From Prevotella sp. (GTDB taxonomy: Bacteria > Bacteroidota > Bacteroidia > Bacteroidales > Dysgonomonadaceae), in contig JAITVV010000032.1 in the NCBI GenBank assembly GCA_031285625.1, forward strand, positions 1 to 30,312: a stretch of DNA of 30,312 nt. The letters are read 5' to 3'. This document shows, in pieces, positions 1-15,590 of the stretch (positions within the stretch are counted from its first letter, which is position 1; each line of letters starts with the position of its first letter). Below the pieces are notes generated by a model, which saw only the letters and a list, made by a program, of their open reading frames with translations, made no database searches and was not told where the DNA came from. The position numbers and the translations under genes are program-made.

Positions 1-1358
1 AAAAATGCATAATAGCTCTTCGTATCGAACCATTCATATTTATAATTCAGTGAAGATTTTGAATAGCCACCTTTATCTGCTCCATAAGGATTACCTCCCA
101 CTACGCTATTTATAGCTGCAGCCTGACGATCTGTCGGATTTTTCCATGGGATTGACTTATGCCAGTTCAAACGCTGTGTCACAGGGGCATCCGGACTTTC
201 CGGACGGACAGGCATTTTAAAGGTAGGATCACCACCATAAGCAGGATCTGCAAGCCTTTCTCTCACTATAGAGTCACGTACCCAGTATACAAATTCACGA
301 TATTGCTTATTAGTCACCTCTGTTTCATCCATCCAGAACGGGCTCACTGCCACTAGCTTACGAGGCACTTCGTCTCCCCAAAGAGGATCAACACCTGTTC
401 CCAGTTCAATATTACCCCCTGGTACTAACACCATATTATCACAAGCACGTGCAATATTATAAGGTAAAAGCAAACGAGTTTCGATAGCCGGATCAATATA
501 TTTAGGTTCTCCAAATTTATAAGTTACACCTAGTGTTGCCTGAGCAATACCATTACTACTCTTATCGCCTCTTTGTCCGTCGAATGCATCATCAATAAGA
601 ATTACACGACCTTCACCGAATATCTGCCAGTTTCTGGTAAAGTTATATCCTAGATTCAAACCTCCACTTCCGCCGAAGAATGTTCCTACCAGATTACCTC
701 TGTGAGCTAGACGTTGATAAAGTCCAACACCCACAAAAGGATTCACTTCAAATTTACGAAGTGGCTTGTATCCGCTTATAAGATTAAGTAAATTCACTTG
801 CACATCTCCAGTTATACTTAAATAACGTAAATGTTGCATATAATATTGTTGATTTGGATATTCTCCTTTTGAACCGATTGGATGATATACAGCGATACCG
901 CTTTCATCAACAGCGCTATATTCGTAGTCAACTCCTTCTACCCAGCCCATATAGTCCCATGCAGGGTCTTTGGTTATTTGTTTAAATCCATCACCGTTAG
1001 TTCCATGTTTCCACCATGTGGTATACGTTCCACTCCAACCATCGTTGAAGCCATGCAAACTACCTCCGGATAATTGTGCACGCAGCGTGACGATATTACT
1101 CATCCTGCGTCCCACAGTCAATGTTGGCGCAAGGGTTAATCTACTAGTAAATGATGTGCGATTACCCGCAACTCCATTATCATCTTCGCCGATATACATC
1201 TGCGCTCCTCCTCCAATGGATATAAACCACACTGGATCTTTTAATAAATATTCATTTCGGGAAGGAACCGAATACTGCTCAGCATTTCCGCTCTGAGCAT
1301 AAGAAACTATTGACACACAGAGCAATAGTAGTGAAGTCAGTAAAGTCTTTTTGTTCAT
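1..1358 (-). CDS. Partial (C-terminus runs off the window): signal peptide + OmpA-like outer-membrane beta-barrel fused to a PorK/GldK-like (FGE/SUMF1-fold) domain
   Basis: Manual translation from ATG 1358 is open for 452 codons to the window edge. Starts MNKKTLLTSLLLLCVSIVSYA/Q. Barrel strands: WFISIGGGAQMYIG, FEVNPFVGVG, WQIFGEGR, QATLGVTYKF (ends ~513). Then MVLVPGG (434), FWMDETEVTNKQYREFVYWVRDSIVRERLADPAYGG (from 338), LNWHKSIPW and LNYKYEWFD, which match PorK/GldK motifs. Confidence 0.85.
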   Translation of the reverse strand, partial: MNKKTLLTSLLLLCVSIVSYAQSGNAEQYSVPSRNEYLLKDPVWFISIGGGAQMYIGEDDNGVAGNRTSFTSRLTLAPTLTVGRRMSNIVTLRAQLSGGSLHGFNDGWSGTYTTWWKHGTNGDGFKQITKDPAWDYMGWVEGVDYEYSAVDESGIAVYHPIGSKGEYPNQQYYMQHLRYLSITGDVQVNLLNLISGYKPLRKFEVNPFVGVGLYQRLAHRGNLVGTFFGGSGGLNLGYNFTRNWQIFGEGRVILIDDAFDGQRGDKSSNGIAQATLGVTYKFGEPKYIDPAIETRLLLPYNIARACDNMVLVPGGNIELGTGVDPLWGDEVPRKLVAVSPFWMDETEVTNKQYREFVYWVRDSIVRERLADPAYGGDPTFKMPVRPESPDAPVTQRLNWHKSIPWKNPTDRQAAAINSVVGGNPYGADKGGYSKSSLNYKYEWFDTKSYYAF

Positions 1359-1398: not shown

Positions 1399-1406
1399 CA
1401 AAGATA
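1399..1406 (-). promoter_or_regulatory. Bacteroidota housekeeping-sigma -7 element (TATCTTTG) for the barrel-PorK gene
   Basis: Matches TAnnTTTG 40 nt upstream of ATG 1358; no clear -33 TTTG. Confidence 0.55.
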
Positions 1407-1484
1407 ATACATTTTTTTTAATTTATTATTTATTTTTCGCGTAAATAATCCCTTTTAGGGAAACTAACAATATTTTAATAACAT

Positions 1485-1520
1485 AAAAAAGAGGGATTCT
1501 GTTCAGAGTCCCTCTTTTTT
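1485..1520. terminator. Intrinsic terminator downstream of PFOR (bidirectional form)
   Basis: AAAAAAGAGGGATTCT-GTTC-AGAGTCCCTCTTTTTT: hairpin flanked by A and T tracts, 16 nt past the PFOR stop. Confidence 0.85.
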
Positions 1521-1536
1521 AACAATTTTATTTGGT

Positions 1537-4500
1537 TTAATTCTGCAATTCAGATGATTCGTCAAACTTATCGAAACTACTATTAGCCAAACGCATATAG
1601 CTATTATACCGCCACTGCGCATTGTTTTGAGCTGCTGAATACAGATCTGTAGCTTCAGTAGGATTCGACTTTTGAAGAGAGGTATAACGTACCTCATTTC
1701 CTAAGAATTCCTGGAATTTAGTCCAATCCGGTTCTTTGCTATCCATTGTAAACGGATTCTTACCTTCTTCTTCCAACATAGGGTTGTAACGCCACAAATG
1801 CCAGTATCCACATGCAACAGCTGCTTTTTCTTCATCCTGAGCATGTCCCATACCTTTTCTCAAACCATGGCTGATACAAGGAGAATAAGCAATAACCAAT
1901 GATGGCCCTTTATATTCTTCAGCTTCTTTTATAGCTTTCAGACATTGTCCCTGGTTAGCTCCCATAGCTACTTGCGCTACATATACATATCCGTATGTAG
2001 TAGCGATCATACCAAGGTCTTTCTTACGAATCTTCTTACCTGCGGCAGCAAATTTAGCAACAGCTGCTATCGGTGTAGATTTAGAAGACTGTCCTCCGGT
2101 ATTAGAGTAAACTTCAGTATCGAGAACTAGGATATTTACATCTTCGCCTGTAGCTATAACGTGGTCGAGACCACCAAAACCTATATCATATGCCCAACCG
2201 TCACCACCAAAGATCCAGATAGAACGTTTGATCAGATATTGTTTCAAAGAATAGATTTCTTTACAATATTCACAATTTTCTTTTTCTTTTTCTAGTAATG
2301 GCAATATCTGAGCAGTAAGCTCTTTTGTCTTTTCAGATTCATCTTTATTAGTTATCCATTCTGCATATAATGCTTTCAGTTCAGAAGAACATTTATCACA
2401 ATCCTGAACCTGAGTCATTAGTTTAGCTAATCTATCACGCATCGTAATATTAGCTAAAGCAAAACCTAAACCATACTCAGCATTATCTTCGAACAATGAG
2501 TTTGCCCAAGCTGGTCCTTTACCTTCTTCATTCTTACGATAAGGAGTAGAAGGAGCAGAACCACCATATATAGATGTACAACCTGTAGCGTTAGCGATCA
2601 ACATACGATCACCAAATAATTGAGTTACAAGTTTGATATATGGAGTTTCGCCACAACCGGAACAAGCTCCGGAGAATTCAAATAATGGTGTTGCAAACTG
2701 AGAGTTTTTCACATTCAATTTAGTATCTACAAGGTGAGCCTTGCTTGTTACATTTTTGATCATGAAATCCCAATTATTTTGTTCAGGGAACTGGGTTCCG
2801 ATCTCAACCATCTTAAGGGCTGAGTTACCTTTTTTACCCGGACAAATATCAGCACAGTTACCACAACCAAGACAGTCTAATACGTCTACCTGGATACGGA
2901 ATGCCATACCATCAAATTGCTTACCCTGAGCTTTTAGTAAAGTTACATCAGCTGGTGCTTTTTCCTGTTCTACCGCATCCAGTACAAACGGACGGATAGT
3001 TGCATGAGGACAAACATAGGCACACTGGTTACACTGTATACAGTTTTCGGCATCCCATACAGGAACAAATGCTGCTACTCCGCGTTTTTCATACTCGGTA
3101 GTACCATGATCCCATGTACCATCTTCACGACCAACGAATACAGAAACCGGAAGGTCATATCCACGTTGTGCATTCACCGGACGAACTACTTTCTTGATAA
3201 ATTCAGGAGCATCGTCTTCTACCGGTTTGCCGACAACAATGTCAGCCCATTCTGCTGGAACTTCCACTTTTTCGATTTCGATACCACGATCTACAGCCGC
3301 ATAGTTTTTCTTTATCACATCTTCTCCTTTACGGCCATATGATTTTACAATGAATTTCTTCATTTGCTCTACAGCCAGGTCGTAAGGAATTACATTTGAT
3401 ATTTTGAAAAATGCTGATTGAAGGATAGTATTTGTACGACCACCAAGTCCAATCTCAGTTGCAATCTTAGTTGCATTGATTATATAAAAGTTGATGTTGT
3501 TTACAGCCAGATATTTTTTCACATTATCAGGCAGGTAATTACCAACATCTTCTTTATCCCATACCGAGTTCAAAAGGAATGTACCATTTTTCTTCAAACC
3601 TTTTGTTACATCATAAAGATGCAGGTAAGCAGGGACATGGCATGCTACAAAGTTTGGAGTATTTACCAAATATGTAGAACGGATAGGGTTATCACCAAAG
3701 CGAAGGTGAGAAGCAGTAAAACCTCCCGACTTCTTAGAGTCGTATGCAAAATAAGCCTGACAATATTTATCAGTATTATCTCCAATAATCTTAACTGTAT
3801 TCTTATTAGCACCTACTGTACCATCAGAACCTAATCCATAGAATTTTGCTTCGTAAGTAGTATCATCTACCGAAACTTCTTCTTTCATTGGAAGAGATTT
3901 GAATGTAACGTCGTCTACGATACCAATTGTGAAATCGTTCTTAGGCAAATTCATGCCTAAGTTTTCGTATACTGACATTATTTGAGCAGGAGTTGTGTCT
4001 TTAGAAGAAAGGCCATAGATACCACCAACAATTGTAGGAGCATCAGCTTTTCCGAAGAAACAATCTTTCACATCCATATATAATGGTTGTCCAAGAGCTC
4101 CCGGCTCTTTAGTACGATCCAGAACTGCAATTTTCTTCGCTGTTTTTGGTACGCAAGAAAGGAATGCTTCTGCCTTGAACGGACGGTAAAGATGCACAGC
4201 AACTAAACCCACTTTCTCACCTTTGGCATTCAGGTAATCTACAGTTTCTTTAATAGCTTCCGTTACCGATCCCATAGCAATAATCACACGGTCAGCATCT
4301 TCTGCTCCATAATAATCAAACAGACCATATTTACGTCCTGTAATCTTATTAATTTCAGCCAGATATTTTTCTACTATTTCCGGAATTGCATCATAGAACT
4401 TATTAGCAGCTTCACGGGATTGGAAGTATATATCGTCATTTTGTGCAGTACCACGGGTAACAGGATTTTCCGGATTCAATGCTCTTTCACGGAATCCTTT

Positions 4501-5106
4501 AAGTGCTTCTTGATCAATCAGAGGAATCAGGTCATCCTGACTCATCTCTTCTACTTTTTGTATTTCATGAGAAGTACGGAATCCATCAAAAATATTCATA
4601 AATGGAATACGGGCCTCAAGAGTAGCCAAATGAGGTACTGCTGATAAGTCCATAACTTCCTGTACCGAACCCGAAAAGAACATGGCAAAACCTGTCTGAC
4701 GAGCTGCCATTACGTCTTGGTGGTCACCAAAAATAGATAACGCCTGTGCTGCAAGCGCACGGGCCGAAACATGGAAAACACAAGGAAGAAGCTCTCCTGC
4801 AATCTTATACATATTAGGAATCATCAACAACAAACCTTGAGAAGCGGTATATGTCGTTGTTAAAGCACCTGCCTGCAACGATCCGTGAACCGCTCCAGCA
4901 GCACCAGCCTCTGATTGCATTTCTTGCACTCTGAGTATCTCGCCGAAGATATTTTTACGTCCGGCGGCTGCCCACTCATCAACATATTCTGCCATTGTTG
5001 ATGATGGTGTGATTGGGTAAATTGAGGCAACTTCGCTGAACATATATGAAATATGCGCTGCTGCCTGATTACCATCACATGTTAGGAATTTTTTTTGTTT
5101 AGCCAT
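1537..5106 (-). CDS. nifJ: Pyruvate:ferredoxin/flavodoxin oxidoreductase, single-chain
   Basis: 1189 aa. YPITPSS; EMQSEAGAAGAVHG; two 4Fe-4S motifs (CIQCNQCAYVCP, CLGCGNCADICP); GACSGCGE; TPP-binding GGDGWAYDIG. Confidence 0.97.
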   Translation of the reverse strand: MAKQKKFLTCDGNQAAAHISYMFSEVASIYPITPSSTMAEYVDEWAAAGRKNIFGEILRVQEMQSEAGAAGAVHGSLQAGALTTTYTASQGLLLMIPNMYKIAGELLPCVFHVSARALAAQALSIFGDHQDVMAARQTGFAMFFSGSVQEVMDLSAVPHLATLEARIPFMNIFDGFRTSHEIQKVEEMSQDDLIPLIDQEALKGFRERALNPENPVTRGTAQNDDIYFQSREAANKFYDAIPEIVEKYLAEINKITGRKYGLFDYYGAEDADRVIIAMGSVTEAIKETVDYLNAKGEKVGLVAVHLYRPFKAEAFLSCVPKTAKKIAVLDRTKEPGALGQPLYMDVKDCFFGKADAPTIVGGIYGLSSKDTTPAQIMSVYENLGMNLPKNDFTIGIVDDVTFKSLPMKEEVSVDDTTYEAKFYGLGSDGTVGANKNTVKIIGDNTDKYCQAYFAYDSKKSGGFTASHLRFGDNPIRSTYLVNTPNFVACHVPAYLHLYDVTKGLKKNGTFLLNSVWDKEDVGNYLPDNVKKYLAVNNINFYIINATKIATEIGLGGRTNTILQSAFFKISNVIPYDLAVEQMKKFIVKSYGRKGEDVIKKNYAAVDRGIEIEKVEVPAEWADIVVGKPVEDDAPEFIKKVVRPVNAQRGYDLPVSVFVGREDGTWDHGTTEYEKRGVAAFVPVWDAENCIQCNQCAYVCPHATIRPFVLDAVEQEKAPADVTLLKAQGKQFDGMAFRIQVDVLDCLGCGNCADICPGKKGNSALKMVEIGTQFPEQNNWDFMIKNVTSKAHLVDTKLNVKNSQFATPLFEFSGACSGCGETPYIKLVTQLFGDRMLIANATGCTSIYGGSAPSTPYRKNEEGKGPAWANSLFEDNAEYGLGFALANITMRDRLAKLMTQVQDCDKCSSELKALYAEWITNKDESEKTKELTAQILPLLEKEKENCEYCKEIYSLKQYLIKRSIWIFGGDGWAYDIGFGGLDHVIATGEDVNILVLDTEVYSNTGGQSSKSTPIAAVAKFAAAGKKIRKKDLGMIATTYGYVYVAQVAMGANQGQCLKAIKEAEEYKGPSLVIAYSPCISHGLRKGMGHAQDEEKAAVACGYWHLWRYNPMLEEEGKNPFTMDSKEPDWTKFQEFLGNEVRYTSLQKSNPTEATDLYSAAQNNAQWRYNSYMRLANSSFDKFDESSELQN

Positions 5107-14251: not shown

Positions 14252-14344
14252 GATAATATGGGTTTTAATAGTTTCACAATCAGTTAACTCCTATAAATAT
14301 AGTTATATTTTTAACAAAACAGGATAGTACATCCGTACAGATTG

Positions 14345-14794
14345 TTAATTTGGCTGATAAGTAGTCACCACAAATATAATTAAAGGTTCATCCCCTGTAT
14401 TAACTATTGAGTGATAATTATTACCTCCCTGTATAGAAGTTATATTCCCTTTTTTCAGATTGAACTTCCGTGTTATTTTATCTAAACCTTCACGTTCGAT
14501 ATACTCTCCTTCTCCATGTACCAATACATACAGTTCCTGTTCTTTCTTCGTTCCATGTTCGTGGAAACCCGCCTGATCACCTTTATTTAAGAGTACCATA
14601 TATGTTCCGATACGGTTATTTACAAGTTCGCCTTTTTCAAATATAGACAACATATATACAACACCGTTACCATCATACATCGGATCACGTTTTTCGATGT
14701 CTATAACAGTCCGCTGTGGTTTACCAAATGGAGTTAATGTAATATCTATATATTTCGATACTGTCTCTAATACTTGTTTTTTCTCGTTTTCCAT
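14345..14794 (-). CDS. Cupin-domain protein
   Basis: Cupin metal ligands in GFHEH...ELYVLVHGEG...YHSIVNTG. Confidence 0.85.
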   Translation of the reverse strand: MENEKKQVLETVSKYIDITLTPFGKPQRTVIDIEKRDPMYDGNGVVYMLSIFEKGELVNNRIGTYMVLLNKGDQAGFHEHGTKKEQELYVLVHGEGEYIEREGLDKITRKFNLKKGNITSIQGGNNYHSIVNTGDEPLIIFVVTTYQPN

Positions 14795-14809
14795 TTTTAT
14801 ATTTGCTTT

Positions 14810-15238
14810 TTATATTATCTTTTCCATTTCATAATGAGGAATACCGACTTCAGTAAACTCTTCACCGATTATATTATAATTGTATTTTAAATAAAAGCCA
14901 ACCGCTACCTTCCGGGCATGAAGGATAATTCTATTAAATCCGCGTTCACGGGCAGTTTGTTCTGCAAAATGTAATACTTTAGCACCAATGCCTTTTTTCT
15001 GGATTGAATTATCCACCGCCATCTGACGCAATTGGATTATCCTATTATCAACAGGAGTTAATATACAGCAGCCAATTACCGAACTATTTTCTTCACAGAC
15101 ACACAAAATATCATTCTTCTCCTTTTCCAAATACTCAGGCGAAAAAGTAAGTCCCAATGGTTCCCGTAAAATCCGGTAACGAAGATCAACCATTTTATCA
15201 TAATCAGGTGTATCAGATATAATTACTTTAGTCTCCAT
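14810..15238 (-). CDS. GNAT N-acetyltransferase (ElaA/YjcF-like)
   Basis: LRYRILREPLG; LRQMAV...QKKGIG acetyl-CoA motif; LHAR; FYLK; EVGIPH. Confidence 0.9.
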   Translation of the reverse strand: METKVIISDTPDYDKMVDLRYRILREPLGLTFSPEYLEKEKNDILCVCEENSSVIGCCILTPVDNRIIQLRQMAVDNSIQKKGIGAKVLHFAEQTARERGFNRIILHARKVAVGFYLKYNYNIIGEEFTEVGIPHYEMEKII

Positions 15239-15239
15239 A

Positions 15240-15590
15240 TTACTTACCTAAAAATTTATTCAACTCATCTGTCATATAAGCACCTAAACGATATGTACCT
15301 CTACCATCTTTCAGGTAGGAGCCTCCCCTCTGAATGGAAAGTGTATCCCTGCTTGCAATAAAAATAAGCTGCTCTTGCGGCACAAAATCTGTATTTTCTC
15401 TCTTTGCAGAGCCAATGATATTTACTAACTGTTGAATTTTATCCAAGTCGGTAATTACAATTCGTTCACCAAAAACTTTTTCATAAATAACCTTATCGGC
15501 CTTCATGTACTGGGTTTTATTAATTGAGCCCTCAAAAGTTGAGCAACCAGCAAAAGCCAGAACGGTAAATAGCAGATAGATGTATTTCAT
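15240..15590 (-). CDS. Small hypothetical lipoprotein
   Basis: Lipobox FAGC; ATG overlaps the hisD TGA (ATGA). Confidence 0.7.
   Translation of the reverse strand: MKYIYLLFTVLAFAGCSTFEGSINKTQYMKADKVIYEKVFGERIVITDLDKIQQLVNIIGSAKRENTDFVPQEQLIFIASRDTLSIQRGGSYLKDGRGTYRLGAYMTDELNKFLGK

Follow-up and report, generated by a model that had tools for sequence, protein, structure and literature searches.

An OmpA-family beta-barrel fused to a divergent PorK/GldK domain at the head of a probable accessory type IX secretion operon in Dysgonomonas

The stretch of DNA analysed here (the window) runs from base 1 to base 30,312 of contig C18 (JAITVV010000032.1; G000:C18:1-30312) of a genome deposited as Prevotella sp. 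(GCA_031285625.1) and placed in the Dysgonomonadaceae, an assembly of 4.84 Mb in 96 contigs that is 94% complete. At its left edge, on the minus strand, it holds the 5′ two-thirds of a gene that joins a type I signal peptide, a beta-barrel of the OmpA family, a tether of 26 amino acids (aa) and a divergent PorK/GldK domain in a single frame. Taken together with its relatives, this gene is probably the first of an accessory type IX secretion system (T9SS) operon, found in most of Dysgonomonas, that runs barrel-PorK2, porL, porM, PorN2. The divergent PorK paralogue is referred to below as K2 and its PorN-like partner as N2, the canonical pair being K1 and N1. Judged from alignments of the relatives, K2 lacks both the lipobox and the cysteine through which PorK binds its partners.

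The frame is open on the minus strand from base 1412 to base 3, where it leaves the contig; since the window is C18 from base 1, the fusion gene is cut by the contig start. From the ATG at 1358 (MNKKTLL...), the start used by every homologue, it has 452 codons (3..1358, minus strand), in agreement with a preliminary description made from the window's letters that had given at least 452. Over its whole length the product shares 93% identity with the 720-aa protein of cluster P0001, the nearest homologue for the missing part, and the same N-terminus was found in 24/24 extracted fused homologues. Residues 1-21 (1296..1358, minus strand; MNKKTLLTSLLLLCVSIVSYA, followed by Q) read as a signal peptide with putative type I cleavage, ending ...SIVSYA/QSG and modelled as a helix at residues 3-20. 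Its single cysteine, aa 14, stands in the context LLLC, where the Leu at -1 makes for a poor lipobox; by inspection none was recognised, as the preliminary description had also read it. The window product thus does not carry the lipoprotein signal of PorK/GldK, and the mature protein opens with the barrel. The earlier proposal that a barrel replaces the lipid anchor is supported by the missing lipobox and by the barrel's place at the anchor's position.

The barrel domain occupies aa 44-282 (513..1229, minus strand) and includes a long loop at aa 106-172. Pfam found nothing over the first 300 residues, and no barrel model matched the domain. AlphaFold2, run on window aa 1-308 with a 92-row alignment, returned a model with eight long strands (pLDDT 85.3, pTM 0.79), the last of which ends ...LGVTYKF at aa 282. 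The best Foldseek match of this model in the PDB was the transmembrane domain of OmpA (9fzc_A, E 7.6e-8, target-normalised TM-score 0.66), followed by Ail, OmpW, OmpX and NspA. An exhaustive phmmer search with the barrel over 1.84 billion representatives recovered 297 relatives at E<=1e-3; among the best 150, 79 were domain-scanned, and 52 of these carry the peptidoglycan-binding domain OmpA_C. In other genera of the family, the closest relatives without the fusion are barrel-plus-OmpA_C proteins of 449 aa and 475 aa, and the window's own genome encodes two paralogues of this architecture (386 aa and 390 aa, on contigs C52 and C95). The OmpA_C model PF00691 matched neither the window product nor the full-length protein of locus L005, from a Dysgonomonas metagenome-assembled genome (MAG); the PorK domain sits there instead. 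These results uphold the earlier reading of the N-terminal part as an eight-stranded barrel of the OmpA type. The same kind of barrel was also seen in another architecture, with a weak OmpA_C match and C-terminal TPR, in proteins of 663 aa and 683 aa (L124:2959-4950 and L126:2588-4639) from two genus genomes that have no K2 (G067 and G109, respectively).

PorG was considered as the identity of the barrel and ruled out: no NCBIfam model, the PorG model NF052316 included (cut-off 130 bits), matched it at E<=10, and BLASTP against PorG of Porphyromonas gulae aligned a 32-aa stretch alone (E 0.008). The barrel belongs to the OmpA family and is not PorG. A genome-wide scan located one PorG gene elsewhere in the window's genome (G000:C4:56967-57587, 223 bits); its tail, ...ARVCPCLNSD, has the C-x-C twin cysteine of the Flavobacterium johnsoniae type, unlike the single cysteine of Porphyromonas gingivalis. 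Since the barrel does not match the family model of PorG and PorG has a gene of its own here, the suggestion that the fusion is a Rosetta stone of PorG and PorK had to be given up. PorG matches DUF6089/NF052316 and not PF13568; the fifteen PF13568-type small barrels of the same genome were inspected for C-terminal tail cysteines, and none has a tail.

Sequence and alignment of the fused proteins delimit a conserved tether behind the barrel (GEPKYIDPAIETRLLLPYNIARACDN, aa 283-308; 435..512, minus strand). Across 26 fused proteins its mean pairwise identity is 0.77, against 0.65 for the barrel, and tether and K domain lie at 0.76-0.84; in a full-length model its pLDDT is low at residues 288-299. 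The 26 aa between barrel and K2 domain compare with 27 aa between the lipid cysteine and the domain in PorK1. The tether also contains a cysteine, Cys306 (...IARACDN, window 441-443), about 24 residues past the barrel; it is present in 21/24 fused genes and absent in 3, and, speculatively, it might pair with the free cysteine of K1 or with another partner.

The remaining 144 residues (aa 309-452; 3..434, minus strand) form the N-terminal part of a PorK/GldK-type domain of FGE fold, the rest of which lies past the contig end. The GldK equivalog model TIGR03525 (cut-off 350 bits) matches the truncated product from aa 308 with 96.4 bits over profile positions 35-168, and the GldK motif FWMDETEVTNKQYREFVYWVRDSIVRERLADPAYGG is present in the frame. 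The barrel end near aa 282, the linker of about 26 aa and the PorK/GldK motifs from about aa 309 all lie where they had been placed. Pfam reports FGE-sulfatase (PF03781) alone, at aa 306-395 with 42.4 bits (180 bits in L005), a fold that PorK shares. The full-length fused homologues score 361-396 bits with the GldK model, above its cut-off in 25/26 genus genomes (G134: 337), and align with the solved P. gingivalis PorK (PDB 9ots, 9mzu, 9myj and 9p6h) over chain residues 50-472 with E about 1e-107, the PorK-specific insert included. The fused K of L005 scores 366 bits as GldK versus 97 bits as GldJ. The window's K domain is 53% identical to PorK1 of its own genome, and K2 and K1 share 46-53% identity over the whole K domain. 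An ESM Atlas look-up returned nothing beyond the cluster of the protein itself and generic FGE clusters, and public records name the fused proteins either 'SUMF1/EgtB/PvdO family nonheme iron enzyme' or 'lipoprotein GldK'. As judged by these profile scores and alignments, the C-terminal part is PorK/GldK and not generic FGE, as had been proposed.

In P. gingivalis, PorK Cys356 forms an essential disulfide with PorG Cys232 (PMC12365241), and in F. johnsoniae the equivalent Cys343 bonds SprF and PorG (PMC12635249). Cys356 aligns with Leu604 of P0001. In a survey of 24 extracted fused genes (L093 and L111 left out), the site is occupied by Leu in 23 and by Met in one, each beside a five-residue deletion; cysteine is present there in 4/4 K1 and in 7/7 other canonical PorK proteins. 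All K2 sequences group together in a 49-row tree (SH-aLRT 100), and the stem of this clade measures 1.14 changes per site; its sister, with weak support (86), is the set of canonical K proteins of the Dysgonomonadaceae, K1 included. On this tree K2 reads as a long-branch, divergent paralogue of PorK.

K2 also occurs without a barrel. Genome G072 (L127:8821-10248) and cluster P0050 have unfused K2 proteins (473-475 aa) that begin with a type I signal, lack a lipobox and carry Lys at the disulfide-cysteine site. The gene in G072 heads a porL-porM-N2 operon, the same position as that of the fused gene. Such a protein would be, by its sequence, a soluble periplasmic PorK-like protein. A quick tree nests unfused K2 among the fused forms, and the AU (approximately unbiased) test does not reject monophyly of the fused ones (p 0.284); an ancestral or intermediate form and a secondary loss of the barrel are both compatible with the data, which favour neither.

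The operon was read from relatives. At L005 the order is pyruvate:ferredoxin oxidoreductase (PFOR), fused K, porL, porM and porN, with scores (cut-offs in brackets) of 366.5 (350) for GldK, 124.6 (68.3) for PorL, 505.7 (180) for PorM, 83.6 (85.9) for the NCBIfam model of PorN and 95.1 (23) for the Pfam GldN model; the order is repeated at L006, L116 (genome G116) and L128 (G097). Each genus genome has one GldM match above cut-off, and in 26/26 fusion genomes this sole match follows the fused gene on the same strand, about 1 kb downstream, with N2 (frames of 287-317 aa) after porM. K2 is borne by 27 genomes (26 fused, one unfused), and N2 by 27/27 of them. Away from the T9SS loci, several genus genomes additionally encode proteins (about 350 aa) whose GldM match is confined to its C-terminal third (37-51 bits, below cut-off; for example G100:C10:433107-433622 and G043:C1:96445-96981).

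The canonical pair lies elsewhere. On contig C75 of the window's genome (79000-82800), a PorP-like gene is followed by a lipoprotein PorK1 (525 bits; lipobox FTSC, ...LFTSC/GKS) and then directly by PorN1 (166.5 bits), with neither porL nor porM between; the preliminary description had asked whether the genome also keeps a canonical lipoprotein porK and a porG, and both are there, on C75 and C4. By coordinates, K1 and N1 are adjacent without porL or porM between them in 33/33 genus genomes in which K1 was found. PorP precedes K1 in G116, and contiguous porP-porK1-porN1 is seen at L117, L119 and L121, with porL-porM elsewhere, beside a PFOR gene. The usual K-L-M-N order is kept in Proteiniphilum, in D. 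macrotermitis, in another Dysgonomonadaceae MAG and in other Bacteroidales. This split into porP-porK1-porN1 and K2-porL-porM-N2, like the loss of the partner cysteine in K2, had been missed in the preliminary description. As a side observation, many genus genomes also encode other proteins of FGE fold (511-555 aa) in which the GldK match is weak and split (for example G116:C1:128559-129401 and G090:C1:637794-638582); none turned up in the window's own genome. These proteins may be GldJ-like or unrelated lipoproteins of the FGE type.

In six genus genomes (G004, G062, G124, G067, G109 and G132), K and N are each present once. In each of the first five, which are 98-100% complete, GldK, GldN and GldM have a single match above cut-off, and porL-porM stands alone with no K or N beside it, directly after PFOR in G004. 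Because these five near-complete genomes keep K1, N1, L and M without K2 and N2, we infer that K1/N1 with L/M are the core and K2/N2 an accessory module. The second T9SS machine that had been envisaged is not supported: the relatives have a single porL/porM pair, within the K2 operon, and the window's genome has one SprA (2724 bits) and one PorG. The K/N pair alone is duplicated.

How widely the fusion occurs had likewise been raised at the outset. In a collection of 5.8 billion proteins, 45 protein clusters (678-746 aa) align to 97-100% of the query with 46-93% identity, and their named members are Dysgonomonas, except for some MAGs labelled Prevotella. Among 151 family genomes (species representatives, the window's own included), the barrel domain has matches in 47; continuous fusion frames of 696-751 aa were found in 26/34 other genus genomes and, in the family, are confined to the window's genus. 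One fusion-bearing genome, G116, is a single contig. Since the same intact frame recurs in 26/34 other genus genomes and the frame is also continuous in the 45 clusters, the misassembly or frameshift at the junction that might have undone the earlier proposal is excluded.

Several points weigh against reading the window as the start of such an operon. The window gene ends at aa 452, which leaves its cysteine site and C-terminal half to be read from homologues. Neither porL, porM and N2 nor the rest of the fusion gene was found in the window's own assembly by hidden Markov model scans or by tblastn with the L005 proteins, the matches of these searches being C18 and the K1-N1 locus on C75 alone. 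Since the assembly has no porL/porM/N2, the operon in this genome is inferred from synteny (PFOR, then K2); the rest of it was evidently lost at the contig break. The claim that the gene heads an operon accordingly held in the relatives, with porL, porM and porN downstream, and could not be seen in the genome for which it was made, where the contig ends. N2 scores 82.7-83.6 with the NCBIfam GldN model, just below the cut-off of 85.9, and the full-length fusion model is poor beyond about residue 600. The genus genomes are kin, so that the counts describe one clade and not independent events. A complex prediction for the K2 domain and N2 of G116 scored 0.00, below the mark, and counts neither for nor against binding.

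The following arrangement would account for the architecture. After Sec export and insertion by BAM, the barrel would hold the K2 domain under the outer membrane, taking the place of the lipid anchor and keeping K2 at the same distance as the lipid-tethered PorK1. K2 and N2 would pair into a PorK/N-type ring or track segment driven by the PorLM motor, in which each K2 subunit would be bound to an integral outer-membrane protein through a peptide bond, instead of the canonical lipid plus disulfide. We tentatively put forward a T9SS with two rings or tracks and a single type of PorLM motor, in which lipidated, disulfide-competent K1/N1 would serve PorG and PorP-type clients beside a barrel-wired K2/N2, as a possibility that falls short of an even chance. 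K2 and N2 might instead be minority subunits of the K1/N1 ring, giving it a few permanently attached barrels, which we hold to be rather unlikely. The single porL/porM pair and single SprA would suit such a mixed ring, as would the identity that K2 keeps to K1 over the whole K domain and the sub-stoichiometry of PorG, about 6-7 per P. gingivalis ring of 32-33 subunits (PMC12365241); speculatively, the tether cysteine could in principle reach a free cysteine of K1. Nevertheless, the company of N2 with K2 in every K2-bearing genome fits a dedicated K2/N2 pairing better, and the long K2 stem suggests altered interfaces. We think it improbable that the barrels lock K2/N2 in place in the outer membrane, so that the assembly surrounds the PorLM motors as a bearing that does not move, a scaffold or an envelope tether. 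Such a static anchor would agree with the relationship of the barrel to OmpA-family envelope tethers, with the drag that some 30 barrels per ring would add and with the loss from K2 of the cysteine that carries moving clients; yet OmpA_C, the immobilising part, is precisely what the K domain has replaced, and the track is proposed to pull small barrels like PorG and SprF along through the membrane (PMC12635249).

Two further explanations would remove the protein from the T9SS or the gene from biology. An outer-membrane-anchored FGE-type enzyme, or some other protein outside the T9SS, is suggested by the lone Pfam match to FGE-sulfatase and by the public nonheme iron enzyme names. We consider it very improbable, given that 25/26 full-length genus homologues pass the GldK equivalog model, that the alignment with solved PorK extends through the PorK-specific insert and that the gene shares its operon with porL, porM and porN. 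The truncation at the contig end and the absence of the rest of the operon from the assembly might also point to an assembly chimera, a frameshift artefact or a decaying pseudogene. This is scarcely credible for a frame that is intact in 26 other genomes, the one-contig G116 included, and in 45 metagenome or genome clusters, with the tether and K domain conserved as described above.

Upstream of the fusion gene, a TAnnTTTG word (TATCTTTG; 1399..1406, minus strand), which we take to be the Bacteroidota -7 promoter word, lies about 40 nt before the ATG. Because the word is common in the window (51 occurrences versus 37.9 expected by chance), it is weak evidence for a promoter. A sigma-70 promoter scan found 0 sites, although a sigma-70 model is uninformative for Bacteroidota. 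A 17-bp G+C-rich hairpin with A/T runs (1484..1521, unstranded) lies just 3′ of the stop codon of the upstream PFOR gene and is placed to terminate it; the terminator scan found 2 such structures in all, with 0.1 expected. The earlier claim that the gene has its own promoter after a terminator stands, then, as to the presence of hairpin and word, the latter being too common to carry the promoter alone. The PFOR gene itself (1537..5106, minus strand; 1189 aa) is a conserved upstream neighbour of the K2 operon: it also adjoins the operon upstream at L005, L006, L116, L127 and L128 and precedes porL at L120. The remainder of the window (5198-30160) is ordinary and encodes an AAA_14 ATPase, a solute-binding protein, a Porin_10 porin, an ECF-type sigma factor, a TPR protein, aconitase, citrate synthase and a DUF2807 protein, together with histidine biosynthesis genes (IGPD, aminotransferase, histidinol dehydrogenase and HisG) interleaved with small unassigned open reading frames and a GNAT gene; bases 14252-15586 contain no open reading frame of at least 150 aa.

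Compared with the PorK/GldK lipoproteins of the T9SS PorK/N ring, K2 shares the FGE-fold K domain, the company of porL, porM and porN and the length of the tether; it differs in having an eight-stranded barrel for the lipid and Leu or Met with a five-residue deletion for the cysteine, and in forming a long branch beside PorK1. The disulfide adducts PorG-PorK and SprF-GldK likewise attach a small barrel covalently to a subunit of the PorK type, by way of a C-terminal extension in the periplasm (PMC12365241; PMC12635249). In these adducts the link is a disulfide to the Cys356/Cys343 loop, whereas in the fusion it is a peptide bond from a non-PorG barrel to the N-terminus of K, and the fusion genome keeps a separate PorG with a C-x-C tail in addition. 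Because the link is a peptide bond and not a disulfide, the coupling of barrel to K2 is 1:1 and irreversible. Relative to the Bacteroidota OmpA family, whose barrel is homologous, the fusion has a PorK domain in place of OmpA_C and the long loop insert at aa 106-172. A precedent for extra paralogues served by one GldLM motor is provided by GldJ (FGE-fold) and GldO (PorN-type) of F. johnsoniae (PMC12635249; PMC9127263); GldJ, however, is a lipoprotein, and K2 scores as GldK and not as GldJ. In the full-text literature available to us, which did not extend to supplementary PorG/PorK alignments, we found no natural barrel-PorK fusion, no account of T9SS organisation in Dysgonomonas and no PorK paralogue without the cysteine. 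What appears to be new here, as read from the genomes, is a PorK paralogue that is anchored and coupled by another chemistry, in a rearranged, partly duplicated T9SS core.

Two papers of 2025 report that the T9SS and gliding rely on outer-membrane barrels tied by disulfides to a moving PorK/GldK track (PMC12365241; PMC12635249). The fusion is a permanent tie of this kind, made on a PorK paralogue that has neither the lipid anchor nor the disulfide cysteine. If the arrangement of two rings or tracks proves true, it would be a natural 'genetic fusion' of the covalent barrel-to-track coupling found in 2025 and could directly test the idea that PorK/N rings pull outer-membrane proteins along through the membrane. 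The fusion thus offers a natural construct with which to ask whether the link need be reversible, how many barrels a ring can carry and whether PorK/N rings and the outer membrane move against each other. In addition, the 'core' porKLMN operon can split and partly duplicate, into K1-N1 on the one hand and K2-L-M-N2 on the other, which matters for automated annotation of the T9SS.

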